From Trichoplax sp. H2 (taxonomy: Eukaryota), in the NCBI GenBank assembly GCA_003344405.1, contig NOWV01000015.1:806001-870000 (forward strand): a stretch of 64,000 nt of DNA. Direction: 5' to 3'. Below the pieces are notes generated by a model. It made no database searches. It saw only the letters and a list, made by a program, of their open reading frames with translations, and had not been told where the DNA came from. This document shows, one piece after another, positions 1 through 41,960 of the stretch. Numbering within the stretch: position 1 is the first letter of the stretch; every line of letters starts with the position of its first letter. Both the position numbers and the translations under genes were made by a program.

Positions 1-300
1 CCTGCTGCCTGTTACTACAGTAATGGACGTACAGTACTGTACTGCTCGCTACGACAGACGTAGTACTGCAGTCTACAGTAGGCTGAAATCCTGTACTTTA
101 TACTACACTGTACCGCAACTTTACCGTGTCATCTCATCTTATTTTCGACCATAGCAAAAATAATGTCGCCTATGGCTTGCCAAGAGTACTGCCTACAGTA
201 GGGCGGTAGAGCTGCCACAGGTGACATCGTCCTTTTTGATGTCTCAGCCTATACTGTAGACTGGACAGTGTAGAGGTCTGTACGGACGTACAGACTTTCC
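1..300. promoter_or_regulatory. GTAC-repeat (CAGTA/TACTG) and CpG-richer island upstream of SUCLG1; probable promoter
   Basis: Clusters such as gtacagtactgtactg (28-43), GC-richer than flanks, 100-400 bp upstream of the SUCLG1 ATG at 390. Confidence 0.55.
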
Positions 301-389
301 TCCACCGACGTGAGTCCTGTCCGGCCCGGCACATTGCGCGTGTGTGGGCAAAGGCACAAGAAGCAAGAGGATACGGTGGCAGCAGCAAC

Positions 390-3300
390 ATGGCTACTCT
401 TCGACTATTGAATAGAGCTGGTAAGCAGTGTTGTGCAAGTAATCTTGCACAGTATGATATTGAAACATGTTCAGAAAATGAAAAAGCGTAATGTTATAAA
501 GAATTGCCTTGATGATACTTTTATCGATACCTCCTACCTTGTTCAATTTATATTGTAGACGGGTAGAACGGAACATACCGTGATGCTGTAGCTAGTATTC
601 CGTATGAGTTACATTGAATTTTTTACTTGACGCTGGTAGAGTAGGAAATTTGATCTTGCTTAACACGTATGGCATCGCGTTTTATCGTTGTTACTGCAAT
701 TGGATGATAAAGAGAATTGTAGAACTCTTTAATATCATTACTCTGACTGCTAGTTCTCTATTTCATATCAAATCTTGAGTCTTCATCTGCCTGCTTACTA
801 CTGTACAGTACTGTGGAAGAGATGTACACTTGTACAGACGGCGTCATGAGTAGACGCAACAATATTCATCAGTAATGTACAACACTGTCGAGTTAATAGT
901 AGATTGGGTTATTGAGCGTAAATTACGCCAGAAGATTAACTCTGTTACGAATATAGTCATACTTCATTTTATTGTAATCATTGCTCACTGTGTATTTTGA
1001 GATCGTAAACCATGACTGCCAACTTCAACATACATAACTGTATAGTAAAGTACTAGCTACTTATGATTGATGTAATTGATATGTAATTATTGTAATTAAT
1101 ACAGTTAATTGCAGTTACAGATGACTGTATCTTAGACAGCAAGCTACATGTACTGTACAGATATTTCAACTTACTTTAGTAATGGCTACATCCAACCTCA
1201 GGAATCTCGGAGTATAGCAAGTACTGTACTGTAGTTGCTTATTATATATATTATTATACAGAAACCATATTCATATTAAAGAATGCATACGATTGCAGGA
1301 TTGCGAGCATAATATGTATCTAAAACTTAATCATGTAATTTCTTCGCGTTTAGTGCTCCGACGCGTAAGCCAGAACATCAGAAGCCTCAGCACAGAAGCA
1401 ACAAGAGGCAATATTATGATTGGAAAGGAGACCCGAGTAATTTGTCAAGGTTTCACTGGTCGACAGGTTAGCGATGTAGTCGCATTCTGCTCAGAATGTA
1501 ATTTGAGTAGGCACTACAACTTCAAGAGAGATCTGGATTAAAAGCCATGCACAATCAAGAAATTACAGTTTTTATGTTCGCGCAATTCACTACCAATTAG
1601 TCTCAATTAATTTAAAATACAATTTGCTCAGTCACTTCTACTTCAAGAGAGATAGAGATTAAAAACTTTCCACAATCAAGGAATTACAATTCACTCCTTC
1701 TGTTCCATTTACTACTGATAATAGGGTACTTTTCATAGTGAACAAGCAATCGCTTATGGCACCAATATGGTTGGTGGAGTTTCTCCTGGTAAAGGTGGTA
1801 AAACCCACTTAGGATTACCTGTTTTTAACTCTGTCCAAGAGGTACGCTATTGACTCCATATATACGTACTTATGATAGTTGTCTATTGCTTATGATAAAC
1901 GTCAAGATTTCATTCTCTATGATGCTATCTTTGTTCTAAAAGTTATCTAATCATTATAATGAATTATTTATACTCTGTAAAAATTGGATTAGGCGGTGGA
2001 CTCAACTGGAGCTGAGGCAACGGTGATTTATGTTCCCCCTCAAGGGGCAGCAGCTGCTATCCATGAGGCTGTAGATGCAGGGATAGGTTTAATTGTTTGC
2101 ATTACTGAAGGAATTCCTCAACAAGACATGGTGAAGGTATAATTATTATCTATAGTGTGATACTATTATCTTAGATTCTGGGATAACTTATTATTCATTT
2201 TGAGACAACTTCCATTTAATAATCTTAGGTAAAGCATAAGATACTTCGACAAGATAAATCTAGATTGATAGGACCAAATTGCCCTGGTATCATTAGAGTG
2301 AGTACATTAATACAAATTTTATGAAATATGCTAAAAATAGTTTATGCCATACCAATATGCTAAGGTCGTTTTACTTGCTAAATCTAACTATTTATTAATC
2401 AACCCATAATTAGCCTGGACATTGCAAAATTGGTATTATGCCTGCTCATATACATTTACCTGGTAGAATTGGTAAGCTAAAACGTTGTATTGACGTAATG
2501 ATATTTGTTGAGACACGAATGAGAAAAACAACTTGTAATGTGTGTATTTATATTTTGTCCTACTTGAGGAATTGTTTCGAGGTCTGGAACTTTAACTTAC
2601 GAAGCTGTTTTCCAGACCACTAATGTCGGCCTTGGACAGACTTTATGTGTTGGTCAGTATCGATATCATAAGTCATGTAGTTATTATTATTATTGATCTT
2701 TCTAATTTAATGTATATAACTTTTATAGGTATTGGTGGAGATCCATTTAATGGTACAGATTTTATTGATTGTCTTGATATATTCTTGAAAGATGACAAGA
2801 CTGAAGGTGCGTTGTTGACTTACTGACAGTGATTTCTACCTATCATCTCGGCTATCTTTCTTCCTGATAATCCAGAGTATTATATAATAGGTTATATCAA
2901 TTATATTATTGTTAGGTATTGTCTTAATTGGTGAAATCGGTGGAGAAGCTGAAGAGAAAGCAGCTGAATTTTTAGCCAAACATAACTCTGTTAGTTACCT
3001 GTTTGTAGCGCTAAAGCATTTGAGATTTCTATTTTTACTGATTATGTACTGTAATTTCCTACTCTATTTTAAAATAAGGGCCCAAATGCTAAGCCAGTTG
3101 TATCATTTATTGCTGGAATTACTGCCCCACCTGGTAGACGTATGGGTAAGCTAACAAAAGAAATTATTTTTTAACCAAACTTTGACCTATCCTAGATATA
3201 GCTAGTACTAGACGTATGACCGTAACTGACATTCGTATCATTTTTCAGGGCATGCTGGAGCAATCATCTCAGGAGGCAAAGGTGGCGCCGAAGAAAAGGT

Positions 3301-3602
3301 TCGATTCTAATTCTCTTTGCCACGAAAATTCAAAATTCGTAATGATATCATGACTAAGCTTACTTCATGTTTATTTTCTTAAAACTGAAGATTGCAACTC
3401 TTGAAGGTGCCGGAGTAGTAGTCACTAAGTCTCCTGCGCGAATTGGTTCAACAATTAAAGAGGTAATTTATATTTAGAAAGTAAAGCTTTTATTAAGAGT
3501 TGATTGTATTAAATCAAGGCTCAATTTTTCGGGGCGTTGCTGATGTTTTGTTTTCGTTTTCAACTCCGTTTATAGGCTATGCAAAAAGCTGGGAAGCTGT
3601 AG
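390..3602 (+). CDS. SUCLG1: Succinate-CoA ligase subunit alpha, mitochondrial (multi-exon)
   Basis: Exon 1 390-420 ([10 protein letters not shown], donor gtaagc, phase 1) joins 1354 ([14 protein letters not shown]; Arg-rich presequence). Later exons give [93 protein letters not shown] (phospho-His motif); stop TAG 3600-3602. Confidence 0.97.
1500..1691. repeat. Degenerate ~70 bp direct duplication (period ~121 bp) in SUCLG1 intron 2
   Basis: cactacaacttcaagagagatctggattaaaagccatgcacaatcaagaaattaca (1512) vs cacttctacttcaagagagatagagattaaaaactttccacaatcaaggaattaca (1633). Confidence 0.85.
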
Positions 3603-4288
3603 CGGTTTTTTATTATAGTCAATAGTCTGTTTAAATTTGCATTAAGCTCAGGATTGCAATAATTTGGAAGCATTAGTTTGTTTATTGAATTATACCCTCA
3701 ACAATGAATTAATCTATCAAGCAATAAAGATTATCGCCTTCATGTAAAATTGAATGAAAATACATCGTTATTGCTGATCTTGAAAGTGATAATAGCAGCT
3801 CGTACGGTGCTCCACTACTACAGTACTATGATGTAGACAATGTAAAATATTTAATGTAACAGATTAATACTGTACCGCGATCGCAATATAATTGTTCGAA
3901 TAGACCGAGTTAGATTTGACGTGCAGTATACGAGATCAACAAATTATATACCATCGTCTGATCATGACAAGATGGATAAGTCACATTTTCTACATAGGAT
4001 AGTAACTTTTCGCAGGCTTACAGAACTAATCATAGATTTTTCCCTCTTCGCTATTCATAGTAACCGCGATCGAAGACTATGACAATCAGCAATCATACTG
4101 ATTTACTGCAGCACTTAGAAGCAAATTTATATCTAACTATTTCAATGATTGCATCAGTACTAACAGTGCATCTTGAATAAATTGTATATTTAACAAAAAT
4201 TGGTAACGATTGGTTCGATTTCTATAATACAGTATACGATTAGCAATTATATTAAGAGAAATTTATAGTACAGTTCCAGAGGATTATT

Positions 4289-7200: not shown

Positions 7201-8364
7201 AATCATTCAAGGGAGAGGAATCCTGTTCGATTTCTCCTTGGATTCTCTGATGTTTTAAAGAAGGTCTAATATACAAGATGAACAACTGTTGACGATATCG
7301 TAACAATAATGTATCGTATCATCCAGACGCCTTTAACCTCTACTATCAAGATCTACAGTAGTTTTAATTTGGCACTTGATACCTGTTAATGCCATAATAC
7401 CAAGGAACATCTTTGATATACTTGGGGATATGAGGATTGATATCTCTGTAATAGAAAGAGTCACATCATTCAATCCTATGTAGCAGTGATAATTTTTTCT
7501 ATTCATCTCATTTTCATCATGATTAATAGCCATAACAGTTCAATGAATATGTCTGGATGAGGCCAAAAAGTGAATTATTACTATCAATCTAAGCTGTACA
7601 GATTCTTTCATTAACACTCTTCTTGTACTGTGTGGTTGTAGGATCTGTACAGTACTTGCACGATGCGTCTATTCGCTATCGAATCAAACTTATGATGGAG
7701 ACAGTTGGCCATGTTACAACACTAGTCTGTGGGCTAATATTTATACACAACGATCTTATGCATTGGTGATTCACTGTACACATTAGTGATTACCTTATTA
7801 GATAAGATCACTGACATTAGTACAATGATTTAAGATAGGGTCTTTGTACTCATATAAATCCTTCTGCACTGATGCTAATAACTATTCTGATCAATTAATG
7901 TTACAAAGAAGCCAAAAAGTGAATTATTACTATCAATCTATGCTGTACAGATTATTCTATCGACGGTCTTCCTGTACAGTGTCGTTGTAGAATCTGTACT
8001 TGCACGACACGTCTATTCGCTCTATTAGAGACTGTGGCTATCGAATCAAGTTTACGATGGAGACACAGTTGGGCATATTACAACACTAGTCTGTGGGCTA
8101 ATATTGAGCATATACTATAGACTTGTTTAGTCAACTAACTTTCTACATCCTGGATGGATCTATTCCAATGGATTATTTGGATATGAAATTGAAGGCTGAC
8201 TTGACTAATACTATCATTCATGCTTACCTTCCTTCTTCATCTACCTCAGCTGGAGCTGTACCCGCTTTTCTAGCTTCTTCTAATTCTTTTTGTTTTTTCC
8301 AATTTTCCCTTGTAACACGATTATTATTATTAGCAGTTTCTGCGGCAGCGGCTGTTAAAGACAT
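4289..8364 (-). CDS. SLU7: Pre-mRNA splicing factor SLU7 (multi-exon)
   Basis: MSLTAAA...[43 protein letters not shown]; zinc knuckle [109 protein letters not shown]. Confidence 0.97.
7562..8106. repeat. ~185 bp direct duplication in SLU7 intron 1 (copies ~7562-7741 and ~7911-8106)
   Basis: Both copies start gccaaaaagtgaattattactatcaatcta and end caacactagtctgtgggctaatatt, with substitutions and small indels inside. Confidence 0.9.
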
Positions 8365-8489
8365 TTTCCTGTTTTCTTCCTTTATTTTCTCCTTTTTCTG
8401 GATTAAATTAGCATCAAAGTATGAAAGTTGTGAAAGCAATTCCTCTCCCACAATTCACGTCGAAACGTTTGAAGGACGTGAGTGACTGT

Positions 8490-9032
8490 CCCGTTTAGTA
8501 CACATCTGTAGTTGTACGATAGTATAATGTATCGTACATACTGCTACCTACTGTATGGTACGTAATACTATGGTACTGAAACGAGCAGAATGTTACGGTA
8601 TTGAAAAAGGAACGGTAGAGTACAGTACTGTGTACTGTACTCTCCTTGAGTAGTACTGTACGGTATGGTACCGTACAGTACGGTGCAGTATCCACAATAC
8701 ACAGCTACAGTACATGGTACCGTACTCCTTGACTGTAGCAGTACAGTACTGTACTGGACTAGACTGGACCGTACAGTGTACAGTACTACTTACAGAACAG
8801 TACTGTACACTGTACACTGATCACGACAGTCAGCTGAAGTGCGCATCCGCGTTCCGTTCCAATCCGTAGTTTACTCGCCACCGTACTGTACAGTACTGTA
8901 CACTGTAGCGTACTCCGCGACTGTAGCAGTACGGGACAGTACTGGACTGTACCGTACCGTACAGTGTACAGTGTACAGTACTACTGTACTGTACTGTACA
9001 GTACACAGTACTGTACACTGGTCACGACAGTC
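8490..9032. promoter_or_regulatory. GTAC-repeat island in the SLU7/BORCS7 head-to-head interval, containing a ~120 bp direct duplication
   Basis: Dense cagta/tactg runs; two copies of cgtactcc..gactgtagcagtac...tactgtacactg.tcacgacagtc (~8721-8831, ~8909-9032). Confidence 0.65.
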
Positions 9033-9761: not shown

Positions 9762-11091
9762 ATGGCATCGAATCTTCCTATTCGAGAAAAGCTTACCAGC
9801 AAGATGCAAAGTGCCATTTTAGAGACTGGAAAGTTAGCTAGACATGTACAGCCAGGATGGAAAACTAACGAAGTTAGTATAAAAATGGATGATTATCCAT
9901 TTATTAAACCTAAAGAATGATGAATGGAGGATACTAACAACTAATAAAATCAATACACTCATGTTAATGTTATACAAGTAAATGCAAAATAACATGTGCT
10001 CGCTTACCAGATTACCTAGTCAACAGGATCTATTGCATACCAGATTGACATTTGACATGCAATGATAGCGACCACAATGTCTACCATTACTATCCATATC
10101 TTACGGAGCCAGTCATTATATTAATTATTATACGCAATTTCTAATAGATGCGTACTGATGTGATAAGCTCGGACCTAAGATGATTTCCACGGCATAGTGT
10201 TATGCTACTGTAATTGCATGATACTGTTAGTAAATGTAGTAATAAAAAATAAGACAACTGATTGTGAATGTGGTACAATATACGTCATCATAACGATGAC
10301 CACTTATCATAACACGTTATAACATAGTGAAATTATAATTTACGATCTCAAGGGCATCACTCAAGCTGTTAAATGTACTTGTATGCAAGAAATACATTTG
10401 AAAAATGCAGTGGATGTGAGTATTCAATAGGCCTTAAGCGATTCAACTTTTAGCAATTGTAATAGCATAACAAATTAGGGGAAGAAGTGATAGAACGTAG
10501 AAATTGATCATACGCGTATTATACTTTCTCAACTACGATGTATAATGTTATACACGATTACTAAAATATTATCTAGAATTCCCAAAAATTAAAAGATCAA
10601 ATTGAAAAGATGAGAATACAGTAAGTATTAACTCACAAATGAAGACTAACTTATATCACTGTACTTGTACAGAATCCATCATTTGCTACAATTTTTGAAT
10701 CTAATCAGTGGTATCATTCCTATTCTAGGTCCAATGACATTGAATGCAAGTACGACTTAGGATCGATAGAATAATAATAAATTATACTTTTTAACTCTTT
10801 CATCAATTGCTGCTATTATTTTAACACAAAGTGCCAATACTGTACTCGTCTATTAGCTATTAGCTTAACGTACATGAAGTGATCTAGTATAGACATCAAC
10901 GAAGCAGTCTTTAAATTGCATCAACATTATTTCAATAGAATTTATTGAAATTTGTATCTTTATAATTTTAAGGTAGTTCTACTAATCTGCTCAATTACAT
11001 TTAATATTTCAGTTTGGAACGCTTAAACGCCATCACAGACTGCCTAGCGACTATCCCTCATATCGCTGATGATACCTCTATCAATAATTAA
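9762..11091 (+). CDS. BORCS7: BLOC-1-related complex subunit 7 (BORCS7/diaskedin-like), 105 aa, 5 exons
   Basis: Phase-consistent GT-AG exons 9762-9872, 10353-10415, 10577-10620, 10729-10749, 11013-11091 give MASNLPIREKLTSKMQSAILETGKLARHVQPGWKTNEGITQAVKCTCMQEIHLKNAVDNSQKLKDQIEKMRIQSNDIECNLERLNAITDCLATIPHIADDTSINN; length and pattern align by eye with human BORCS7 (LTEKV..LTKQVLKGSRSSELLGQAARNMVLQEDAILHSED). Confidence 0.75.
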
Positions 11092-18500: not shown

Positions 18501-20780
18501 AGCAAAGTATTTTAGTGTTTCATGAAATGTTTTTTGCCATAGCGACGTGCCAGTGTTCCCATTCCACAAAATAATAGTTGACGGTAAATGCAAAACAGCT
18601 AACAGATCACGTGAAGCTTGCTGAGAAGGAAACCATTCCAAATGACCAACGGCGGATGTCCCCGGTTTAAAAAAACGTGCAATTACGCTACCGTCATGCA
18701 CATTCCACACAATAACATTTCCAGCTTGATCTGCTGACGCTAAACGCAAGGTATAAGGTGATCCAAGACTATGATGATAATTTTCTAATGACCATTTAAC
18801 CTATGAAATATCCATTATAAAATTAGGTATTACAGGAGATGAAGTAGAATCATAGTTAGTGTATTATAACAAATTGTGTTGCATGTAGAATTAAAACAAT
18901 CAATAGGAATATTGATAGATACTGTGGCTTAATTTAATAATAGTTTATGTTGATATCTAATGATGGCACTATAATGTTAATGATCCTATAAACAGAAATG
19001 GGAAGCGATGGCTAGTGATAAGATTACAAGCTAAGATTTCTTATTTTTGTAGTATCGAATAGAGTATCTATTTCAAGATTTGTAACTTTTCAAAAAAAGT
19101 GTTGATCGCCTCTATCGCTACGACTAACTAAATACAAGTACAAGTTGCATCATACACAGGCCAACAATTTTACCTTGACTACACAAGCCGGATGTCCTAC
19201 AAGTGTTTGAAGAGCCTGCAGGATTAGAGAGAAGAGTACTTAGAATTGCGCAATATAGTATACTTACATCGCAGTTTATGTATTGATATTGTCATCCAAT
19301 CATCAAAGAATTGACTTTTATATGCTACATGATGGAATGCGGTGTAGGTACAGAAAGAAAATATTACTTAAATACTGGGTATAGTAGTGTCTTGAAGGGT
19401 GATGTTAGTAAATATGTAATAATACGCTGAGTATGAATAACCAACATGTCTATTTTCGCATCTATAAAATATCTACGATCCATGTATAATCGGATAGTAA
19501 TAATTTCCTCATTAGTATAAATGTTATCATTCAATTGCTTGACACATATATCTTGTCATTGTACACAAAATTATTGGGTTTATTTCTTCCTTCCAATTCA
19601 TCATGATTTTGAATAGTAAGTCATTTCATTCATAACAAGATGATTCGATATGTATCGTACCATATGTTGGAGATATTCTGCTCGTCAAATTACGCTAAGA
19701 GATTTCTTCATTACCTCTATGATGTAGTTCAATCACTAAAGTATAAATTGATACAAAGTCTATTTTGCGTCTAAATTACGGGTACACTACATCTAGACAT
19801 GTACATATATAAGTCTATATTGCAACTCAAATTGAGACTAGCAGATTGTGAGAGTTTCCTTTCAATTGATCAAGAGTTCAAGACGAACATCTACTTTATG
19901 GTATCAAGGTTAGGCTATAAAAATATAATCAAGCAAGATTAAAGTGATCCGCTGCAACTTACCCTAAATGAGACAATATCGATGACAATTACGTTCTTAT
20001 CACATCCGTAGGCGAAGAGAGACTGCCATCCCCTGTCAATTCATTAAAAATTGATGAGATTGTAGAAAACTAGAAGCAGATTTATTTATTTACGCTAACT
20101 CGTGACTGTCATTTCTTATCCATTATTTAAAGACGTGAATGTCTACTGGGTAGAACATTTTGCATTGGTACGACTTGTCAATTGAGCCCTACTGGAAAAG
20201 ATGATTCTGTCATATCATGATCGACCCTCAAATGAACCCTAATAATTACTGTAAGTCATTGAGTCGCTTGGATCTATTTTTCATACCCTATCCGTGATTA
20301 AAATGATGATGAAACAGTCAGTCATTTATCATTGATGTGTGTCTATTATAACTATAGAAATGGGAGAGAATTTTACTATCAAAGCGTCCGCTCTTACGAT
20401 AGCTGGCGTACAGTATGATATGTTACAGCCCTGATGGCGACTTTGAAAAATAACAACATCTGATATGTCCAAGTTTACTTTGGTATTTTTCATCTTGGAC
20501 AGATGAGCTTTTAATGACTACTGCGGCAACTCTAGACTATTGAACGATATGATTATCCTAGCATGAATAGCTCGATTGACAAGACAATCATGACGAAGAA
20601 TTGAATACTAATAGCATGGACAGTGAAAGAGAGAGAGAGAGTGGATTGCATAAGCATTTACCAATCGCAAGCTCCACGATTGCCTTCATTGATAGCACCG
20701 GGTAGAGTTCTTGGAGGCACTTTGATGACTGTATTCCAAGTTTCATTGGCCACAGGAGTAGCTTTACCTTTATCGGACAT
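12552..20780 (-). CDS. WDR11: WD repeat-containing protein 11 (many exons)
   Basis: MSDKGK..KVPPRTLPGAINEGNRGACDW|GWQSLFAYGC..|ALQTLVGHPACVVK|VKWSLENYHHSLGSPYTLRLASADQAG; LRMCPPLTTKNLSYYKPLLAVG; TVKLVATNLIANGRLYEGVQLLCLI; last exon ends SENEVEET-stop at 12552. Confidence 0.95.
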
Positions 20781-20949: not shown

Positions 20950-21410
20950 GCGGAGGAATACAGTACAGTGTCGTGTCGTACAGTACGACTTTCTACTTTA
21001 CAGTACAGTATGACGATCTGGTACTGTACAGACGACCGATATCAGTACAGTACTTGATATGGCGGAATACTGTACTGTACAGTAGTCCGCCGTATTGTAC
21101 TGTATTGTAAAATGCAGTACGAACTGTCTTGCTACAGTGTACAGTACTGTAGTTTACTCGTCGACTGTACTGTACAGTACAGTACAGTACTGTAGTTTGA
21201 CTCGTCTTGTACTGTACAGTACAGTACTGTAGACGCAAGACAGTTCGTACTGTACGGTGCAGAACTTGTACTGTACGATACGACACGGCAAACTAGTCCT
21301 TGATATCAAGTACTGTACTGTACAGTACTGTACTGTACTGTGACAATACAGGGATCTACAGTACAGTACAGTACATTGTACTGCACTTAGCCTACTGTAC
21401 ACTGTATCGG
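20950..21410. promoter_or_regulatory. GTAC-repeat island with nested inverted repeats in the WDR11/SPC24 head-to-head interval
   Basis: Dense cagta/tactg runs; perfect 18-bp inverted repeats 21043-21060/21303-21320 and 21115-21132/21235-21252. Confidence 0.65.
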
Positions 21411-21746: not shown

Positions 21747-22300
21747 ATGGAGGAAAAATTAACCCAAGCCATAGAATCAATCAGTCTTAGTGAAGCAGAC
21801 AGCGAAACAAAAGTATTAATAGATATAAGTAATCAAGTCATTAGCCTAAAAATGTAAGAATTTTTCCTCAAGCAATTTGAAACTTGACGGCTAAAGCAGC
21901 TCAAGAGAAACAACAAGCAGAAAATCAAGCGGAGAATGATCACTTTTATTCGAAAGCTATTGAAAATTTACAAAAGAAATATCAGGAATTAGAACAATCA
22001 TCACGGTCGGCTAACTTGAGAAATGATAATGACGCCACCAAGTTAAATCAACTCATTCAGCAAAAGGAATCGACAAGCAAAGATCGTAAAACTGTTGAAA
22101 CTCAAGTCATGGAAAAAACCAAATGTAAGCAATTCTTCGATCTGTACACAAACATCTCTGGAATTGAATGGAATTACCATTGTTCCGCAGATCAAATCAA
22201 AGGTGTTATAATGTACGAAAATGACTGCAAACCCTTCGCTTTAAATGTATCTGAAAATACTGACTTTGAAATGACCAATAAACTATGGCAATTGTTATGA
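21747..22300 (+). CDS. SPC24: Kinetochore protein Spc24-like (NDC80 complex); 5' structure uncertain (weak intron or disrupted copy)
   Basis: Coiled-coil region then Spc24-type C-terminus LYTNISGIEWNYHCSADQIKGV...KPFAL...FEMTNKLWQLL (human LYHQVSKIEWDYECEPGMVKGI...FISDYLWSLV); ATG frame at 21747 stops at ~21855 unless intron 21829-21896/21899 is removed. Confidence 0.7.
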
Positions 22301-26500: not shown

Positions 26501-28638
26501 GCCAAGTTTACAATTTTTAAACGATAAGGAGCAGTCAAGTACAATTATCACAAGGTTTTATGGTGCTGTTTTAAAATGATATTTTCCAAAGGGACAGTAT
26601 AAAACGACATCACGACATCGTTCAATGCATGCAGTACAAGTAATCCGCACTATCAAAATAAAGGCATCAAATTCTTAACTGTATTCCATGGAACCTTACT
26701 ATCAACTTCAAAATCAAATGTTTATTTTACGATTATACCTTACTGTCGTGACTTAAGAGCAACGATATTCTACAGACTCTAGTTAAGGATTGATTAATTA
26801 ATTACTATTTCGACAAGTGGATTTTAGTTATCGTACTAGTAACTTTAGCCTTCTCTAGAATCGACACAATACTACAAATTGATGAGAAATAAAATAATTA
26901 CTGGAAAAAATTTTGAGCCACTAAGGAGGCAGTGTTACTGTTCAAGTTTTCCTTTTAAGCTCTCAATAGCAAAAATTGCAAATGATACATCTTGTATTTC
27001 ATAAACTTACATAGTTTTCACCAAAATGAGTTTGACCACTTTCAAATGCATCAATTATAAGATTAACAGGCTTCGTTTTGCTGACGGCAACTAAACGAGG
27101 CTCTATATTAGGTAATTCCTATTTGAAATAGCAATAGAGCATATTTGTATCGAGTTTCATTGGAGGGATTATTTATATGTCTATTCTTGAAGATAATTAT
27201 CGTGTGATTGATATTGGAGTAACAATATCACATCCAATTCGCTTAATTCCGCTTCAACTGATACGTAGTGCATCTGGTAGATTAGCATGATTCAAGCAAG
27301 AATTATAGGTCATAAAAAATAAATAAATAATTATAATGCTGTAAAAAACAGTTTATGATTGTAATGTATATTGAAAATTTTCAAAGTCGATGGACATTTT
27401 CTCTCCAGCGCTTAGTGTCAAGTTTATTTACAGTATTTCTACATGTTTTACAGCTGCAGACTGATCATTTCTCATATTACTGTACAACATAGTATGATTG
27501 TCATTCACATGAAATTCATTTTTAAAACTACAGTACAGTAATATTACGATGAAGAGCTTCAACAAGTGCTGAGGTCAAATAAGACGGCCTTTCCAAGGGC
27601 AGGAACAAGAGATTTTTGCTTTTTGGATATTGCCATCGTATAGTATCTTAAGCTATCAGGGTCAATCTTATTTAAAAGAATAATATTCATGTTGTAGTGC
27701 AACCGCTGAAAGTATAAATCAAGTAGAACAGAATGAGGCACAGTTACACGATGAGAAGAACAAAGTGTTGAGCTTGTAAAGTGGAATAAAACTACCGTGG
27801 TTTTAATTTCTTTATAAAAGCATAGTTAGTGACTCTTTGATGTAATTATTACTGTATATTTTGGATAGCAATAATCATCCTTGTAAAACCGTGATATAGA
27901 ACGGTTAGATGATGTTTTTCGATCCGTCAGAAACGATGAGATTGGATCTGTCCAATGTATGAAAATTGTGTTGTCCTGGAATGAGTTGTAATTTATTTTA
28001 TTTATATTGATTTAAGCCAGTGATGACAGATTGTTCTGATCTAGGTCAAAGTGTCTTTCCTACTGATGATCGAGCATTTTAACATTTTTATTATTACAAA
28101 GTCGTTGGGTTTTAATACAGACGATCGTCATGTAGGGCCAAAATAAAATGAATTTGCCATCATATTGCATGCTGGTGATGCAATTAGCCAATTTCCCGGT
28201 ATGATTATTATTGGGGTGGACGGCGAGCTACTGCATGTACTACTATACTGTATCTATTGTTGGAGTTGTTCATCATGTTGTTGTAATAGAGCCAACAGTT
28301 TGCTACTATTGATGGTAACTCATTGCAAAGGGATTTCCTATCCAAGCTCAATGTATAACAATTAATGGATTGGATCTACGGATAAGAAGACAATTTTCAT
28401 CATCAAGACTACGACATGAATGAAACGATGGCGTCCATGCCGCTGGGAACTACGCTTTGACTTCTGGGAGTGCTGGTAAAGTGGCAACATATTGCAATCA
28501 AAGTCCATTACTGTTGCAGCAAGTACTTACAGCAGATCGACGCAATTTAGCAGCTTCAATTCGCTGTAGGATATTCTCTCTTGCTCGACCAACCTCCGTT
28601 AAAGCAATCATGATACGACGAGCGCTGGCTATCGACAT
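23589..28638 (-). CDS. PLPBP: Pyridoxal phosphate homeostasis protein (PLPBP/PROSC/YggS family), 8 exons
   Basis: [11 protein letters not shown] (PLP-binding Lys), [79 protein letters not shown]-stop. Confidence 0.97.
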
Positions 28639-28689
28639 GGTAGAGATGGAAACGGCAATGGAAAAGGAGATATAAAAGGAGAAAGTAGA

Positions 28690-29345
28690 CGAGGATTAAT
28701 GGCCAATCAACGCACGTTCTCCAAAGCTATTGTCGCTGCTGGCTGTATGGTAGTGCTCACTGGCTACAGTATCCAATGGTGGAACCAACCAGCCAGGTCA
28801 CGACCAATGACTTATAGTGTACAGTATTACTGTACTGAGAGATATCGTCACCGTATGGGTGGCACTAGGGCCTCTACGTTCAAAAGGCCATTATTTAGAG
28901 AGATAATGACCTGGGCTATGGACAATGATCACGTGGTACAAGAGGAGGAGCTTCTTTTGTTTCCTTTGAAGGGGCATTGTACAGTACTGTACTGTACCTC
29001 TTTTTAGAGGTGAGAGATATCGTCACCCCTATGGGTGACACTACGTTATACCTACACCTAAATGGCCATTATTTGGAGAGATAATGACCTGGGCTATGGA
29101 GAATGGTCACGTGGTGCAAGAGGAGGAGCTTCTTTTGTTTCCTTCGAGGGGCATTTGTACTAGAGGTATTTAGAAGTCCGTCAATACAGTAAGGTCATCG
29201 GTCACACAGGTCAATTTCGACATTGTTTCACGGTTAAAATGAAAACTGTATCAGTACAATAACAAAAGAATGCTACAGTACAGTACAGTATCTATTCACT
29301 CAACCATCCTACTGTACACTGTACAGTTGTGTATAGTACTGGATG
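28690..29345. promoter_or_regulatory. PLPBP upstream region: CCAAT boxes, TCACG/E-box sites and GTAC-repeat patches
   Basis: ccaatc at 28703, ccaatg at 28804, tcacgtgg twice, gtac clusters at 28818-28836, 28978-28997 and 29274-29340. Confidence 0.5.
28836..29160. repeat. Tandem duplication of a ~148 bp unit (28836-28982, 29011-29160) with several stem-loops
   Basis: Both copies: tgagagatatcgtcacc..tatgggtg.cacta...ggccattattt.gagagataatgacctgggctatgga.aatg.tcacgtggt.caagaggaggagcttcttttgtttcctt..aggggcatt. Confidence 0.92.
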
Positions 29346-29583
29346 GGGGACCACTTCTTCTTGCGGTCCAGGACTCCATTTGGCTACCGAAAAGGCTTGA
29401 TTAGGTTCGAATATTGATTTTGAGGTAGCGATTTGGTGATTTGCAGCACTCTGACTCTGCCAGCTAGTATCAAAGGCATCGTCATCTGGCTGAGGACTGC
29501 GGATACAATCACCTAGCCTACAGTGTACATAGGGTAATGGACTACATAAAGTACGGTACTCTATAATAATTAGAATTGTCAGT

Positions 29584-29761
29584 TAAAAGTTGGAGAGAAA
29601 TCCAGAAACTCTGGTCTGGTTCATACGGTCATGGACTACAAAAGAAATACACTACAAGTGTACACTGTACTGTATAGTACTGTAGAGTCGACTAAAAATT
29701 GGAGAGAAATCTAGAAACTTTGGTCTGGTCCATACGGCCATGGACTACGACAGAAATACAC
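29584..29761. repeat. ~70 bp direct duplication
   Basis: ttggagagaaatccagaaactctggtctggttcatacggtcatggactacaaaagaaatacac vs ttggagagaaatctagaaactttggtctggtccatacggccatggactacgacagaaatacac. Confidence 0.9.
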
Positions 29762-29874
29762 AGTTCAAGGGGGAAATAGAAACTGTACGCATCATGTACT
29801 ACGCAATACTGTACAGTACTGTACAATGTACATTATGCTATACCTTGGATCACTAGAACACCGCTGGTTCCGCA

Positions 29875-29949
29875 TTGATGAAACTCGACTTCTGCAATAC
29901 TGCATATTCAGATCTGCAGAACCGGGTATCGCAGAAGTAGTTTCATCAA
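29875..29949. repeat. 75-nt imperfect inverted repeat (long hairpin)
   Basis: ttgatgaaact/agtttcatcaa, acttctgc/gcagaagt and atac/gtat arms. Confidence 0.85.
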
Positions 29950-30989
29950 CGTCATAGAAATATGACAGATCATTTTAATTGAATGATGTTAGAATTTTAT
30001 AGCGTATAATGAGTCTATGGTAGCTAAAGTGAATTCACTCTGAGGCATGCCATATCATGTTTGCTGCAGGTTGTCACTTGTCAGCCAGCATTATAAGCAG
30101 TGGATTACAATTCAGTGAACCATTTCTATTGTAGTGTACAGGATGCTTGCTGCGGTATTATGCACTATTCACCGTGCACAATAGAGTAGACTCTTCAGAT
30201 TTTAATTTGATGTTCACAACTCTATATACAGTACTGTACTGTACAAGTGCTATATGTTCAAGGCGAGTAGACAGCAGCATTCTGATCATTTCCGCGCTGT
30301 GGTAGTTGTAATGATATCTTCTTTAAGTAGCGTAAAGTATTTTAAGGTAGACGATGATAAAAGGTATAAAGGATTTTATTGAGATACAAGCTATAGGCTA
30401 ACAATGATATGGTTGTTATAGATAAGGTATTTGAGATAGCAGGAACGTAGGAACTGACTAACGAGTTAGCTTACAAGGGTATTTATAGGTTTTAGATGAG
30501 ATTGAGATAATGTCTTTATATGTACAGTATAGCATGTCGTCTATATGTCGTCATGATGTCGAACATTATGAATATAATGCAATACAGCACTTAAACGGTA
30601 TACGATAAGTAGTCGTATATTAGGATATTACTATACTAGGCATCTTCTATATAAGATCATAATGTTACAGTAGTGATTTCAAATGCTTGGAGACGTTTCA
30701 GCATCCAATAATTCTGAGCATCAAGTTAACATCCGAAAGGGTCTACAGTGTACACTCTATAGTACAGTACTGTACAAGGATAGGGCGATCAGCATTTTGT
30801 ATGGATTGTTGCAAGTACAACGAAAGCAAAATCAATCCTACCATCTTCTTCCAGCCATAGGTAGCAGATTGGCATAGGGATATTATTAACTAAAAAAGAC
30901 ATGCAAAATATTTTTCATCTTGCAGTTGTGATTTTCCAGTCTACTGTACTCCAGGGTTTGAGATCATGTTGGTGATAATACTCATAATA

Positions 30990-31155
30990 GTAGTACTGTA
31001 CAATGTACTGTACATACTGTACTGTAGTACTGTAGGTGTATACTGTACAGTATAGTACAGTACAGTGTACAGTACAGTACTGGGTATTACAGTACAAAGG
31101 ACGGTATCGCACTGTATTGTACAGTACTGTACTGTACTGTACCCTACTGTATAAC
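30990..31155. promoter_or_regulatory. GTAC-repeat island ~1.1 kb upstream of the 7TM gene ATG
   Basis: Near-pure tactgtacagta/cagta runs. Confidence 0.55.
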
Positions 31156-32230
31156 GAATTATCTATTGTCCTGTCTGCCTGCTCAATCTTGTCCTATTGT
31201 TCAACTAGCTTGAAACAAAGACTTTCTTTTTAATCTATCTTACAGTATTTTGATGTTATTGTTTTCAATAATTTATTTAAAAAAATTTTTAACCGTAATG
31301 TATTGACTATCAAATTCAAAAACGAGAAAGTCATTGATGACGGCATGACACAATCTTAATTTTTTTTTTCTTTTTGTTGTCTGGTCTCATCGTTGCCAAC
31401 GATCTGCTCGAATTGGATTCTTTCACTTGGATAGAATTCTACGGTCGAGAAAGACGAGGTCGATCTTTCAATTTGTCGACTACTTTATTCTACTGGACAC
31501 GTATCTTGTAGCCGGTCAACAGGCTCGTTGCTCGACAACACGACGTGGTCTTACTGTCCGATCCGATTGTTGTCTCTGGATCAAGTTGATGGATTATCTT
31601 GCCCCTTTATTTTGACTTGAAAAGTGGAAATCAAACGGAAGAAATTGACGTTAGGATACAGCCTTGAATTACTTCGATCTTATTCACACCTTTTCAATAT
31701 TGCATTGTACAATCCTTGCACTACTACGGATAACTCGGGCTGATTTCTCAATCGACGAGCATTAGCAAAAGAAAAAAAAAGGACTCTTGTCAATCTCTTG
31801 CTTGATGTTTGGAATGGTTGCTCATGAGCTGCAAGAGTAGTATCGAAGGGATAACATTCTACTTGATGACAATATCGAATTTATCGATTAAAGTACTTTC
31901 TTGGCCTCTTTGGTAGTGTAATGGCCAAAAGAACATAGCGACATCACTGTGTGATCATTATTTCCTTTCACACTTGGATATTACTACGTTTTGCTATTAC
32001 TATCATAAACAATAATAAAAGACAACAAACAGATTCAGCTTTTGCAGGGTACATCGAAGACATTTTGGCTAGCATTATAGCTTGCCCCTTGCATAACAGA
32101 ATTATAGGTCGAAAATTATTGGTGGTTCTCCAAATAAAATTCCTTCCACTATTACAGTCCATCACAATTTGGCCTCTTGCAATTTATCCAAGATATTTGG
32201 GTGATAAAAAAAGAAAGTTTCACAACAATC

Positions 32231-35200: not shown

Positions 35201-35831
35201 TTGGTAAGAACAATTTACAATTTTTTTTATGTTCCCGGCGAGACATTTTATTTATGTATTACTAAACTAATCATATTATCTTTCATTTGTTGTTATAACA
35301 TCTCTATAGAGCGTGATGGTATTTTGTGCTGTCGTTATGATGTATAAAGCTTTAAAATGGTGTACGTATAATACAATGTTACTTCGACAATTCTCTGAAA
35401 GATTAAAGCGTATGGTTTCGGAAGTAAAATTAGTACATACGACACACGTAACCCCACAAGATCAAATTGCTGCAAAATTAAATATTTTGTTGCGTCTTAG
35501 ACATATATGCGCAATATTCTCTGTTATGTTTGCTGCAGCTATTACATTAACATCTCTACTGTATCAACTCCTGTGGATTCAAGCTCTATTCTTTGAAATT
35601 CCCAAGACTTTTTTGTACACATGTATAGCGTACCTTTGTAGATTACGAAATTTTGCCCCCTATAATGAGATTACGTTAGCCATTCCTTCTATAGATTATA
35701 ATATTATTTATACACCTCGATCATCTGGCGAGGATAAACTTGGCATTTACTTAGCAATACCATTAGAAAATGGAGAAAATCTTGTTGATAATGATGAATT
35801 AAATAGAAATACAAATAACATTTCTGAATAA
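32231..35831 (+). CDS. Divergent GOST-type (GPR107/GPR108/TMEM87-like) seven-transmembrane protein, ~510 aa
   Basis: Phase-consistent exons 32231-32479, 33742-33867, 34045-34257, 34409-34528, 34672-34771, 34918-35064, 35142-35203, 35310-35831; signal-peptide-like segment, Cys-containing luminal region, seven hydrophobic segments; NLHKII..IK, VMLISEGYCIIK and IAYLCRLRNFAPY resemble GPR107-type IH.LM..L..K, LIGTGWAFIK and GYKFRP..NNPY. N-terminal exons less certain. Confidence 0.7.
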
Positions 35832-37878: not shown

Positions 37879-40417
37879 TTAATTTTCATCCTTAGTACCA
37901 TGTTTTAAAATTCGGGTGAATGCAATGTAATCAAAATTTCCAGACGAATCGATTGGCGCACCATGAAACATATCGTTTACCTATAATAAAAACCGTCATT
38001 TATCTCATTCCTCGAAATCATTAATTATACGAAATTTAAAAATTGAGGCATATTCTCAATCTTAATAACATCGTTATACCTCATCTTCTGTCATTCTATC
38101 ACCCATGGTCATTAATAACTCGCGAAGACTGAAGAAAGGTTATAAGTTAATAAGTTAAGTTTTTGCATTACTCACATTACTATGTAATCATCGTAGCATA
38201 AGGGCATTAGTTAAGAAATTAAAACAACGAAATTACTCCTAAGTTGATACTTACTGTTCTTCATGAATTCTTCCTTTTCCATCTTCATCAAACAGCGCAA
38301 AGGCATTCCGTATTACGTCCTCCGGATCCGTCCCTAGCATTAGTGTACACCAAAGCAAATGTTTTTAGTTATCGTATCATTGTAACCTTTACCAGTAGTG
38401 AAGCGCCACAGCTATAAATACCATTTAATTTGTCTCCAAACAAAGTCAGAAACATAGTAAAATTGATAGGGCCTGGAGATTCATTGATCATATCTTCCAA
38501 ATACTGGTCAGTTGGATCTTTTCCTATTGTAATGAATTTCAATTTCAAATTAAGCACAGATGAATCTATAACAGTAGCTTAGGCTTGTTAGTTGCTGGTA
38601 CAGTAATACATGATGATTGATATCTGCTATTAATCATACTTCTAAGGAAAGCTGTTACTAAAATGTAGTCCGAATGTAAGGCAAGGATAATATGGTGGAA
38701 TCCCCTCTTATAAATTGCAGTTTTGACTGACTTGCAGAAATAAAATAAACATGATGATAACATATCACATACCTAATGATGCTAACATATCGTGCAAATC
38801 TTCTTTGTCGACAAATCCGTCATGGTTTTGATCGATCATGTTGAAAGCCTAATATAGCAAAGCAAGAGGACTATTAATACAATGGAGATTAAGAAATAGA
38901 AACAAATTAAGGTAATGGTTCACAAATCCTAATTATAATCTACAGAATATATCGTACATTATTCTTGCATATACTGTATGTCAGTAATAATGCAAAAGGT
39001 AGACCTTTAGCTTTTGCAATGCTAGCGCATTAATGAGTCATTTTGCATCATAAAGCCAGAAAGTTTTGACTGAACGCAATACTACTTTAGTACAGAGATC
39101 ATTTATTAGTATGCTTCAATGGAATCCAATGATTTGTGCGAGTCGTCCCTACTAAAAGATACTTAAGGTAGTTTTTTGACTGGAAAGGAATTATCTTGGT
39201 GATTGGTACTTTCAGTCTTATACTATAAATGTTTCTACTTTGATAATAGCAATAGTTAGAATTTATTACAAAATATAGTCGTCTTTTTTTTTAAGGAGAC
39301 CCTGGTCAATGAAGGATATCGATATAACTACAGTATTTATTTTGGCATCCTTCACATAAGCAAACTGCAATGAAGTCATTGGTTAACATTGAACTTTGAG
39401 AAATAAACTTTATTGATATTAGTTCGATTGCTGAAAGAAACTGTAGCCTAATTTTGTCTTTCATATTTGTACATTTCTAGTGGTGTATCATGCAAACTTG
39501 GGTATCATAGAACATTACTGTAGAACTATTTCAAGTCACGTAGCAAACTGAATCCAAAGGCACCAAGACGCGATGAGCACATACAGAGTTTACCTGACTA
39601 AATTAGGTATAGGCGTAAACTGTAGCACTGTCACATATGACTGCGCACGGATGACTTGATACTACTAGTACGTGAGAGTACAAAAGTAAAATGTGATGCC
39701 AAGTTAGCATGATCAGATAAACTATTGGGATAAATAATACCAGGAACTGTAGAATTGCTGCTATTGAATGACTATATCTATTTTTATTCTATATGATCAA
39801 GTATCTTAAGCTATTCCAAGTTGTACGGCACTCCATGTCAAGCAGATAATCGCCATGCAAAACAAACTAATTTTTACGGTCTATTGATTTGTAAGCAGTT
39901 TATTCTATTTGTATATTTGTCGATATATTGAATTTTATTGGTTGTAGATAATACATACCTCCTTAAATTCTTGGATTTGTGTCTGATCGAACATAGCAAA
40001 GACGTTAGAAGTGGCCCTTACGGCTCGCTTCTTCGGTACTTTTCTACCGGCACGACGAGCAGCCTGTAAGAGAAGGCCATTTTAGCATTTTGAATAGAAT
40101 AAGAATAGGATATTCTACATGGAAGTTGCATACTTTAAATCTTTCTCGCATTATTTTCATACAAGCTGAAAGTATTATACAGTACGATACTACATTAACT
40201 GATTGGAGCATAGAGTCGATCGCAGACTGCCATCATCGCCAATGCCAACATAATTAATTAACATGGCGTCGAGGGCGCGGTCCTCGTCAACCAACAACAC
40301 TTCCCTATTGATAATTTGCAACATCTTGTCGCAAGTGATGTTCCGTCCATGCTTTCTATCCTCTAATACTACTCTGTTACAACTTATCACTGCTAAAATG
40401 ATGCTCCAACTTACCAT
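37879..40417 (-). CDS. Myosin II regulatory light chain, non-muscle/smooth type (MYL9/MYL12/sqh-like)
   Basis: ATG-only coding exon (40417-40415, donor gtaagt), then [61 protein letters not shown]|..[58 protein letters not shown]-stop. Confidence 0.97.
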
Positions 40418-41289
40418 TTTCCTAATAACACTGGAATTTTCCAAAGAACAAGGAGTAAAAAAGGCGTCTGCTTCAGTAAATCTGCCAAGCGTAAAAATTG
40501 ATTGCGTCTAGCGTGTCCAAGTTGTATGGTACGGCGCCGTGCCCGTGGAATGATACACTAGTTTGCCCATATATTGTAGAGAAGACTATGAGTGAAAGCA
40601 GGTAGTTCAGTACTGTAGGTGCCAAGAAGAAGTCATGTCGGCGCATGACTTCCGTCCGTAGCCACCACCATCAAACTGAGGGCAGGGACTACTGTGAAGT
40701 CCTGAATCGCACTGGTAGTACCGTGTATGGTCATAGACTTCTAGATACAGCACGCTGTATGAAAACTGGACAGTACTATACCAGGAAAGTTCAGATTTTT
40801 TTTCTCTATCCATTAAGGGGACCGCATTTGACTGAGACTGCGCAATATACTGAGTATTCAGAACAGAGTATTGTATCGTATTGTGCTGATCATTCTTGGA
40901 CGGACAAACATCCCGACCTCTTTTCGTCCAAATATTGTTCTAAACATTTCGTTATGACCCTACTTGAGTATGCGGACGGTCTATACTGAACGGACTGATT
41001 TTTTCTCTAAATTAAGTCATATTACGTTGAATCTTATTATCGATTACTAAAGCTCTGCTTAGGAATACTGTAGTTACATAAGATCGTAAATGTTATTTTA
41101 ATTAGTACCAGTGATTTAGAAAACAGATTGAGAAGGTCCATACTAAGTAGCCATTTTTCGATATTTCTAGCCTGATTGGGTGAGAAGGGTCCGTCTGTCT
41201 GAGGCAGTGATCAGTCCACTAGTAGTGAATTGAACTCGGATCACTAGTCCAGGTTTTCTTCTACAGTAGTGTTCAATACAATATGCATC

Positions 41290-41960
41290 AGGAACAGCTA
41301 CAGTACAGTACTGTACCACTACATACTGTACACTGTACAGTACTGCACCGTACCGACCATCAGGCGGCAGCAGGGATGGGACTGGGAGGAGTGACCGTGT
41401 TGTACTGTTACTGTAGTGTACATGCGCAGTGATTTCTCTACTATGCAGTATGCATTTACAGAAATCTCCAGGTTACAGTATACTGTACAGTGTACACTAG
41501 AGCACAGAAAAACGTGGTAGCAAGGTATGGCTACAAAAAAGTCTTTTTGCTGCCCTTGCTACAAATTGATACTAAAAGTTCGTTTGACTATTTTACCCTG
41601 CAGCCATCCCTGGCTCCTTGCTACCGTACTCGTATTTAGTGTCGTGTTATAATACTGCAGTGGCACCATGTACAAATGTACTGTACATTGTACTGTAGTA
41701 GTAGTAGCTATTATGCCGTGACATTGTGTCACGGCTCACCATACATGAATCATCCAATCAGAATCGGGTTCGCTACCTGCTGCCCTTTTTTATCTGTTTA
41801 CCTCTGCGAGGTTGAACCCAGGACAGGGTTCACGTCTGATGAGCCGTACAGTACTGGAGTGTACGTTGCGCTGTCATTCACTGTATTGTACAGTATTACT
41901 ACTACAGCGTCTATTCATGACATGGTACAACTATGATGATGACGACGACACAGTACACAT
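41290..41960. promoter_or_regulatory. GTAC-repeat patches in the MRLC/PANK head-to-head interval
   Basis: ctacagtacagtactgtacc (41298), tactgtacactgtacagtactg (41324), further clusters at 41470-41500, 41670-41700 and 41845-41905; ccaatcag at 41754. Confidence 0.55.

Follow-up and report, generated by a model that had tools for sequence, protein, structure and literature searches.

A GTAC-core pentamer repeat in promoter intervals of broadly used genes of Trichoplax sp. H2 and its likeness to promoter signals already described in placozoans

The closest described system is the placozoan promoter motif reported by Kim et al. (Nature, 2025; PMC12221973). According to the portions of that paper used here, about one third of placozoan genes share this motif, and the promoters that carry it are accessible, marked by H3K4me3 and anchor promoter–promoter loops, the so-called ‘promoter hubs’. 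The motif-bearing genes, whose promoters are named GP1, are housekeeping and highly expressed, and the motif is present at orthologous promoters across four placozoan species. A second class of active promoters is devoid of strong loops, and the motif is found in 60% of the loop anchors of C. collaboinventa. Furthermore, Mutator elements annotated with EDTA are concentrated in GP1 promoters and contain the motif in their TIRs, a Mutator origin being given as one of two possibilities.

A second study (NAR, 2026; PMC12817080), in which the Chimaera neural network was applied to T. adhaerens Micro-C, describes ‘repeating motifs ACGG and ACAGT’ associated with insulation in this species. In the part of that text used here, the motif of Kim et al. 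is equated with the ACGG repeat and ACAGT is given separately. This was the only literature found that ties ACAGT to T. adhaerens.

Placozoans have small genomes and mostly promoter-proximal regulation, yet they form thousands of chromatin loops. In Drosophila, the boundary elements of housekeeping promoters contain sites for BEAF-32, M1BP and DREF. These are short motifs clustered at housekeeping and often divergent promoters, which also act as domain boundaries; they differ from the repeat described below in sequence, in having known binders and in offering few copies per promoter instead of dozens of units. Ctenophore loop anchors bound by CTEP1 and CTEP2 provide a further parallel, with a lineage-specific, transposon-linked motif and a small genome whose loops number in the thousands, although their motif is GC-rich and methylation-sensitive, the loops connect enhancers and promoters, and the zinc-finger binders have been identified (PMC12221973, in the portions used here).

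The window analysed here is a stretch of 64,000 nucleotides of Trichoplax sp. H2 (contig NOWV01000015.1, positions 806,001 to 870,000). Its ten commonest 5-mers are the ten rotations of ACAGT/ACTGT, which are gathered in islands. The likeness to the GP1 element is broad: both are placozoan and lineage-specific, lie at the promoters of housekeeping-type genes, consist of a repeat-like motif linked to inverted repeats and recur over many promoters (PMC12221973, compared by description, since the letters of that motif appear only in a figure). However, the GP1 motif would be the ACGG repeat according to PMC12817080, and ACGG is the minority variant in the window; moreover, Kim et al. attribute their motif to Mutator TIRs, whereas the window displays no independent sign of a transposon. 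The ACAGT motif of PMC12817080 shares the same five letters, the species group and a location at gene starts, where it is tied to chromatin boundaries. It differs in being treated, in the text used here, in one sentence and a figure as a motif separate from ACGG, with no islands, GTAC core, 5-bp pitch, palindromic build or gene classes. Taking the two papers together, as far as the portions used here go, the promoter GTAC-repeat signal is real and appears to be already in print. A previous reading of this DNA from its letters (the sequence-only reading) had known of no such description, a statement overtaken by both papers, and had assigned the islands to every housekeeping promoter, which is too broad in view of the second promoter class and the 60% of C. 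collaboinventa anchors. What the window adds is the presence of ACGG-type units in the same arrays, the random-looking spacers and the finding that TIR and TSD criteria are trivially satisfied by this repeat.

The genes flanking the islands, and one contrast gene, are as follows (positions in the window).

ATG at 390, plus strand: SUCLG1, from Pfam domains; the GTAAGC donor of exon 1 is near 420 and exon 2 spans about 1350–1470 (by eye)
ATG at 8364, minus strand: SLU7, from Pfam
ATG at 9762, plus strand: BORCS7, from a Trichoplax sp. H2 protein of 100% identity that carries PF16088
ATG at 20780, minus strand: WDR11, from Pfam
ATG at 21747, plus strand: SPC24, from Pfam, with a score just below the Pfam cut-off
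ATG at 28638, minus strand: PLPBP, one exon matched to solved YggS/PLPHP structures
First putative exon right of the island at 30942..31155, plus strand: 7TM gene, with a weak lead to GPR137 (Atlas) as the sole hint of identity
First-exon ATG at about 40413, minus strand: MRLC, exon matched to residues 2–38 of MYL9/MYL12B in solved structures
ATG at 42151 in an inferred new exon 1, plus strand: PANK, from Pfam, with exons 100% identical to T. adhaerens PANK
48504..50438, minus strand: contrast gene, PA14 plus CHGN glycosyltransferase in a single exon, from Pfam, without an upstream island

Exons in the window match named Trichoplax proteins with 100% identity. In Pfam searches with single exons, BORCS7, the 7TM gene and the new PANK exons were not recognised; the Atlas search returned no match for BORCS7, and another PLPBP exon had no match among solved structures. 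The MRLC and PANK junctions (ATG|GTAAGT and ATG...ATG|GTACGT) were read by eye, and PANK intron 2 was inferred from splice phase. No Rfam family or tRNA was detected when the window was scanned for them.

The islands and weaker clusters are listed next, with copies of CAGTA/TACTG given for the six intervals named by the sequence-only reading.

16..300: upstream of SUCLG1, truncated by the window start; 9 GTAC, 9 copies in 1–300 (30/kb); above the shuffle threshold at 16–200
692..1233: weaker cluster in SUCLG1 intron 1; 110 covered bases, 10 GTAC, above the shuffle threshold
8485..9031: between SLU7 and BORCS7; 45 GTAC, 54% pentamer-covered; 30 copies in 8490–9030 (55/kb)
20959..21410: between WDR11 and SPC24; 38 GTAC, 58% covered; 36 copies in 20950–21410 (78/kb)
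28815..29341: right of PLPBP; three GTAC clusters around a 178-bp x1.8 tandem duplication (28836–29160); 13 copies in 28800–29340 (24/kb)
29520..30780: mini-clusters scattered over the long PLPBP/7TM intergenic region; 22 GTAC in 29361–30930 (about 14/kb), 29659–29832 above the shuffle threshold, 109-bp tandem duplication at 29553–29761
30942..31155: just upstream of the first putative 7TM exon (plus strand); 78% pentamer-covered across 30990–31155, with 17 copies there (102/kb)
41262..41960: between MRLC and PANK; dense to 41496, then sparse; 18 copies in 41290–41960 (27/kb)
42599..42701: small cluster in the inferred PANK intron 2; 53 covered bases, above the shuffle threshold

All six intervals are enriched, as had been claimed: together they hold 123 of the 365 CAGTA/TACTG copies in 2680 bp (4.2% of the window), against 3.9/kb outside them. 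Two of them are patchy: at 28800–29340 three short repeat clusters are divided by the unrelated 178-bp duplication, and at 41290–41960 only 41290–41500 is dense (52/kb vs 15/kb beyond). The three weaker clusters (692–1233, 29520–30780 and 42599–42701) were absent from that reading. Rotations of the pentamer cover 4496 bases, compared with 2551 ± 115 (maximum 2964) in 200 dinucleotide shuffles, none of which comes near the observed level, and in the densest 200-bp segment the covered bases number 131, whereas no shuffle exceeds 49. With up to one mismatch, TACTGTACAGTA occurs 46 times, with 0.28 occurrences expected.

The islands lie in the promoter intervals. Five ATG-to-ATG intervals (SUCLG1, SLU7/BORCS7, WDR11/SPC24, PLPBP/7TM and MRLC/PANK), which make up 11% of the window, contain 921 of its 1308 long-run bases. 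The sequence-only reading is borne out here in three respects: islands are present upstream of SUCLG1 and in the four head-to-head intervals (5/5 promoter intervals), the convergent 3´ intervals contain scattered copies only (0/5 have islands), and the 50–64 kb region is poor as well, with 2.4 copies/kb. Long-run bases reach 41–248 per kb in 5´ intervals vs 6–12 in 3´ intervals. Two glycosyltransferase genes, which are probably cell-type-specific, have no islands; upstream of the contrast gene, 50382–51400 has 0 long-run bases. A circular-shift test of position gave P = 0.014–0.025, a modest value because there are only five clusters. Within the window, islands are thus indeed associated with the promoter intervals of genes in broad use. 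The gene functions found here (trafficking, splicing, kinetochore and metabolism) fit the housekeeping classes named for GP1 and, judging by position relative to nine ATGs and assuming housekeeping status, the islands would be placed at housekeeping-gene promoters as GP1 elements are.

This location also suits a reading of the arrays as core-promoter sequence. The arthropod initiator is TCAGT, and the CAGT core of each ACAGT unit resembles it, so that symmetric cores could direct many starts on both strands, that is, dispersed bidirectional initiation. The units are strand-symmetric and, in each of four divergent gene pairs, the islands precede both ATGs by 90–850 bp. Nevertheless, clusters are also found in introns (692–1233 and 42599–42701) and over a 2.6-kb intergenic region, and the published signal concerns insulation and looping rather than initiation (PMC12221973 and PMC12817080, in the portions used here), which leaves this reading quite unlikely.

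The repeat is built from GTAC, a palindromic core that recurs at a pitch of 5 bp, with A or T as the spacer. The arrays are degenerate and mix ACAGT and ACTGT in both orientations, with occasional C or G spacers that produce ACGG-type units. At the 5-bp pitch, the spacer letters are T (37), A (33), C (5) and G (1), and the four decamer types are found 14, 20, 13 and 14 times. Constraint looks to fall on the GTAC core rather than on the whole unit.

These properties bear on whether the arrays are a passive pentanucleotide microsatellite, expanded by replication slippage in open chromatin. Tandem Repeats Finder (TRF) reports period-5 arrays, and local tandem duplications are present (42-bp x2.2 in the WDR11/SPC24 island). 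However, slippage predicts long single-unit runs, and the longest run of exact units in the arrays is six; the head-to-tail runs expected of an (ACAGT)n microsatellite were not found, TRF matches being 64–92%. Orientation is mixed, with neighbouring spacers the same in 12 cases and different in 14, and 7-bp variants recur within the arrays. Moreover, 18 kb of other non-coding, AT-rich DNA of the window contains almost none of the repeat. A microsatellite origin is therefore highly improbable.

Two islands display a larger architecture. The WDR11/SPC24 island is a nested imperfect palindrome at 20978–21386 (409 bp, centre at 21182) around the 42-bp tandem core; its arms are 67% identical, and two blocks, one of 18 nt and one of 17 nt, are mirrored exactly and include non-repeat sequence. 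The SLU7/BORCS7 island contains a 284-bp imperfect palindrome (8748–9031) and a direct repeat (8701–8831 and 8890–9032). Arm identity in the two palindromes is 67–69%, both have blocks that are mirrored exactly, and the palindrome scores of the other islands are at shuffle level. Since the mirrored blocks of these two islands contain non-repeat sequence, a real inverted duplication has occurred.

Long palindromes of this kind, together with the published concentration of Mutator annotations in GP1 promoters and the motif in their TIRs (PMC12221973, in the portions used here), could indicate that the islands are what is left of Mutator-like transposons or MITEs, with long TIRs made of the repeat and a preference for active promoters, reflecting insertion history and not function. 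A scan for TIRs (12 nt, up to two mismatches) with exact 8–11-bp TSDs detected 25 candidates in the islands and none in five control regions. In the candidates listed (22 of the 25; 12 of 15 for the WDR11/SPC24 island), however, both the ‘TIR’ and the ‘TSD’ consist of repeat sequence, and the TIR and TSD criteria are therefore uninformative here. No 9–11-bp TSD of unique flanking sequence was found, every TSD among the candidates listed being repeat sequence, and the flanks of the WDR11/SPC24 palindrome do not match by eye. The islands have minimal non-repeat sequence in common (31 shared 10-mers, with the longest stretches around 12–13 nt), island-to-island alignments of 70–78% are limited to the repeat, and within the 64-kb window no family consensus beyond low-complexity sequence was found between islands. 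No transposase domain, that of a MULE included, was found in the ORFs of the window, and in one survey Trichoplax yielded no FHY3-type factor derived from MULEs. In addition, the motif recurs at orthologous promoters of four species (PMC12221973, in the portions used here). A transposon origin is thus unlikely. A caution follows for annotation: structure-based transposon callers will take promoter repeats that are self-complementary for TIR elements, and this touches the published idea of transposons shaping placozoan genome folding.

Nucleosomes could also be excluded through DNA structure with no specific protein, either by hairpin or cruciform extrusion or by unusual flexibility from TA, CA and TG steps that recur at 5-bp intervals. 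The sequence-only reading had proposed such mechanisms beside factor binding, and all of them are hypothetical. As single-stranded DNA, the islands at WDR11/SPC24, SLU7/BORCS7 and the 7TM gene fold with z scores of −10.4, −5.7 and −6.0 against dinucleotide shuffles, and 0/100, 0/200 and 0/200 shuffles, respectively, folded as well. Such scores are nonetheless expected from any self-complementary repeat, the palindrome arms are far from perfect, and a fixed global mod-5 phase across an island was looked for and not seen, so that structure by itself is a very unlikely explanation.

The explanation that we favour, and that is probably correct, sees in the islands a DNA hallmark of one class of placozoan promoters, which serve housekeeping genes and are often bidirectional. 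The arrays occupy the promoter intervals of nine genes in broad use, assumed to be housekeeping, avoid 3´ intervals and the two probably cell-type-specific glycosyltransferase genes, and grow via local tandem and inverted duplication. If they are the same element as the published one, they may form accessible cores flanked by H3K4me3 that insulate neighbouring domains and may anchor the promoter–promoter loops of ‘promoter hubs’ (PMC12221973 and PMC12817080, in the portions used here). Each island would then present symmetric GTAC sites by the dozen to a putative factor, probably a dimer or oligomer, whose multivalent binding would keep the region nucleosome-free and whose contacts with other copies would bring islands together in space. 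If a simple DNA word that can be counted marks the housekeeping promoters that loop, the identity of the hub-building protein can be tested directly.

The relationship between the two published motifs can also be addressed in the window, where ACGG-type and ACAGT-type units co-occur in the same arrays. GTACGG/CCGTAC hexamers show a 12.6-fold enrichment within the GTAC islands, where they are the minority (15 vs 187 GTAC), and most ACGG-type units of the window lie in the SLU7/BORCS7 island (9 copies of GTACGG/CCGTAC). True (ACGG)n tetranucleotide arrays were not found in the window; ACGGACGG has one exact copy and, with up to one mismatch, 18 matches vs 8 expected, none of which forms an array. 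It is conceivable, although we hold this only tentatively, that the Trichoplax ‘ACGG’ and ‘ACAGT’ motifs are one periodic code, with a GTAC core every 5 bp and a free spacer. The ‘Mutator’ link would then be an annotation artefact, and the islands, instead of being transposon debris, a promoter-intrinsic, locally duplicating architectural element that evolved in placozoans, read by a putative placozoan-specific multivalent GTAC-binding protein that sets open chromatin and promoter clustering.

Finally, the islands recall vertebrate CpG islands as compositional islands at broadly active promoters, but they are defined by a specific repeated word instead of a dinucleotide bias and have no CpG or GC excess. 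With a CpG observed/expected ratio of 0.28–1.00 (0.89 for the window) and a GC content of 0.32–0.48, identity with CpG islands is rejected, and the comparison drawn by the sequence-only reading is an analogy only. Cytosine methylation is reported to be missing in placozoans; if the two motifs were one code, the GTAC islands would therefore serve functionally in place of CpG islands.

The window is AT-rich (G+C about 34%; 28–43% per 2-kb window). Among over-represented 5-mers, the top ten places are taken precisely by the rotations of ACAGT and of its complement ACTGT, ten words in all, at 2.1–3.0 times the mononucleotide expectation. There are 416 GTAC sites in the window where about 200 would be expected, and successive copies are most commonly 5 bp apart (76 times), the next commonest spacing being 7 bp (16 times). 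The ten pentamers cover 4496 bases, compared with 2551 ± 115 (maximum 2964) in 200 dinucleotide-preserving shuffles; the best 200-bp window has 131 covered bases, where the shuffle maximum was 49. The sequence-only reading had noticed dense CAGTA/TACTG islands in six intervals (2680 bp), and the observation is confirmed: 123 of the 365 copies lie there (45.9/kb, against 3.9/kb elsewhere), while the palindrome that it had proposed, TACTGTACAGTA, occurs 46 times with at most one mismatch versus 0.28 expected. The six are jointly enriched, but two are patchy: in 28800–29340 a 178-bp tandem duplication, unrelated to the repeat, splits it into three short clusters, and in 41290–41960 density is confined to the first 210 bp. 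Three weaker clusters (692–1233, 29520–30780 and 42599–42701) had been overlooked.

GTAC reaches 32/kb within islands and 3.9/kb outside, with pair-distance peaks at 5, 10, 15 and 20 bp and also at 7, 12, 17 and 22 bp. At the 5-bp pitch the spacers are T 37, A 33, C 5 and G 1 times, so the repeat unit consists of the palindromic core GTAC and a single spacer base, mostly A or T. A passive slippage product of one pentamer is a rival explanation for the islands, but exact arrays are short (at most six cores), adjacent spacers agree in 12 cases and differ in 14, and the four possible decamers have 14, 20, 13 and 14 occurrences, which is unlike such a product. Because of these three features, the conserved property is suggested to be the core and its pitch. 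A constant mod-5 phase through an island was not seen. C or G spacers yield GTACGG/CCGTAC, 12.6-fold enriched in the same islands, chiefly that at 8.5–9.0 kb; ACGG-type and ACAGT-type units occur together in these arrays, being variants of a single GTAC-core repeat that differ in the spacer. The window has no true (ACGG)n arrays, and neither CpG nor GC excess was found in the islands.

Genes were called by Pfam on stop-to-stop ORFs, supplemented as indicated:

ATG 390, plus strand: SUCLG1 (Pfam)
ATG 8364, minus strand: SLU7 (Pfam)
ATG 9762, plus strand: BORCS7 (window sequence 100% identical to a Trichoplax sp. H2 protein of 105 residues that carries PF16088)
ATG 20780, minus strand: WDR11 (Pfam)
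ATG 21747, plus strand: SPC24 (Pfam, just under cut-off)
ATG 28638, minus strand: PLPBP (exon matching YggS/PLPHP residues 29–59)
7TM gene: GPR137 is a weak lead only
near 40413: MRLC, first exon ATG/GTAAGT (read by eye, using splice signals and frame; exon matching MYL9/MYL12B residues 2–38, EF-hand exons downstream)
ATG 42151, plus strand: PANK, two unannotated upstream exons (Pfam; start read in the same way as for MRLC)
48504–50438 and 62188–63999, minus strand: two paralogous single-exon PA14+CHGN glycosyltransferase genes (Pfam)

The five ATG-to-ATG promoter intervals (upstream of SUCLG1, SLU7/BORCS7, WDR11/SPC24, PLPBP/7TM and MRLC/PANK) total 7190 bp, 11% of the window, and hold 921 of the 1308 bases in runs of at least 9. 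The islands had been placed in promoter intervals and not in convergent 3′ intervals, and this holds: the former carry 41–248 run bases per kb, the five convergent intervals 6–12, and the 1 kb upstream of the glycosyltransferase gene at 48504–50438 0. No GTAC island lies near either PA14+CHGN gene. A circular-shift test gives P = 0.014–0.025 for promoter association, its power being restricted by the small number of clusters (five).

The PANK exons are 100% identical to T. adhaerens TRIADDRAFT_61521 (92% for the whole ORF, due to non-coding flanks); together with the BORCS7 identity, this assigns the window to Trichoplax. The T. adhaerens model (386 aa, starting MDIGG) looks 5′-truncated, as coding sequence extends upstream of that Met (window 44596); splice signals and phase point to one exon from ATG 42151 with a GTACGT donor and another at about 42271–42386, ending in phase 1. 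In the probable first exon of the 7TM gene (31330–31360), an ATG is followed, across a run of ten T, by a signal-peptide-like ORF in a different frame, reflecting either an assembly homopolymer error or a true start elsewhere. Within an SLU7 intron, a sequence of about 200 bp is directly repeated (7559–7741/7908–8105, 78% identical).

The idea that the repeat was undescribed fails, since both this repeat and an association of it with chromatin boundaries at gene starts have been published, as far as the available text of the sources goes. A literature search found no link between ACAGT and T. adhaerens outside PMC12817080; that paper (NAR 2026) connects repeating ACGG and ACAGT, listed as two motifs, with insulation in T. 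adhaerens and equates the ACGG repeat with the loop-anchor motif of Kim et al. According to the accessible text of Kim et al. (2025, Nature, PMC12221973), GP1 comprises about one third of genes, forming promoter–promoter loop hubs in T. adhaerens and Cladtertia collaboinventa; these are housekeeping genes with high expression, marked by ATAC and H3K4me3 peaks. De novo discovery gave a motif that is enriched at loop anchors and found again at the promoters of GP1 orthologues across four placozoans. GP1 promoters are also where EDTA-annotated Mutator elements concentrate, their inverted repeats carrying the motif. The authors offer two readings of this: either a binding site was domesticated, or insertion was targeted to promoters. 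The repeat in the window is probably this element, whose motif letters appear as a figure only.

Local structure bears on the possibility that the islands are transposon remnants. Island 20959–21410 is a nested imperfect palindrome (20978–21386, centre 21182, arms 67% identical) around a 42-bp unit repeated 2.2 times; two of its stretches, 18 and 17 nt long, are mirrored exactly and take in non-repeat sequence, and the inverted duplication is therefore real. Island 8485–9031 combines a 284-bp palindrome (69%) with a 144-bp direct repeat. That two islands are genuine inverted duplications speaks for a transposon origin, and a window of 64 kb is too short to reject a family seen genome-wide. However, a scan for 12-nt inverted ends with exact 8–11-bp flanking duplications gave 25 matches in islands and 0 in five control regions, and among the matches listed both features were always the repeat itself. 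Target duplications of unique sequence, a family consensus common to islands and a transposase ORF are all absent from the window, different islands share almost no non-repeat sequence, and one survey did not find a MULE-derived FHY3-type factor in Trichoplax. There is reason, then, to doubt the transposon link.

Single-strand folding far exceeds shuffles (z = −10.4 for 20959–21410, −5.7 for 8485–9031 and −6.0 for 30942–31155), and the islands might act by DNA structure alone, or be initiator arrays; the transposon, initiator, structure-only and slippage explanations are not mutually exclusive. We favour islands as a multivalent platform for a putative symmetric GTAC-binding factor, which would hold promoters open and cluster them. 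Composition, pitch, symmetry, position, local duplication and hairpin potential are direct observations on the islands; accessibility, insulation and looping would carry over from the published accounts, as available, if the element is the same. The promoter-code interpretation is partly supported, the window adding caution on transposon annotation and a modest refinement, the union of ACGG-type and ACAGT-type units in the same arrays.

Within the PLPBP/7TM interval, 28836–29160 holds 1.8 tandem copies of a 178-bp unit (86% matches), each with several small hairpins, a CACGTG E-box and, at its end, a GTAC run; it could be transposon-caller bait or a duplicated regulatory module. A 109-bp tandem duplication (29553–29761, 82–90% identical), with neither coding nor RNA-family signal, lies amid GTAC mini-clusters of the same long intergenic region. 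A PLPBP intron (27578–27652, minus strand) encodes a 25-aa ORF that weakly matches the SWIM zinc finger (E = 0.023, below cut-off). Such fingers are present in MuDR transposases; the match is most likely chance.

The gene-poor stretch 54980–60105 contains tandem arrays (153 bp × 3, 125 bp × 2.3 and 99/192 bp × 5.8) and, at 59589–60026 on the minus strand, a 146-aa ORF of repeated FES(T/I)LWLCNHQL units for which no family match was found. For the two paralogous proteins, which combine PA14 with a chondroitin-GalNAc-transferase-like part, the nearest named relatives are vertebrate B4GALNT3 (26–27% identity). A 128-bp fragment at 62025–62152 repeats the 3′ end of the second of these genes (74%) and is left over from duplication.
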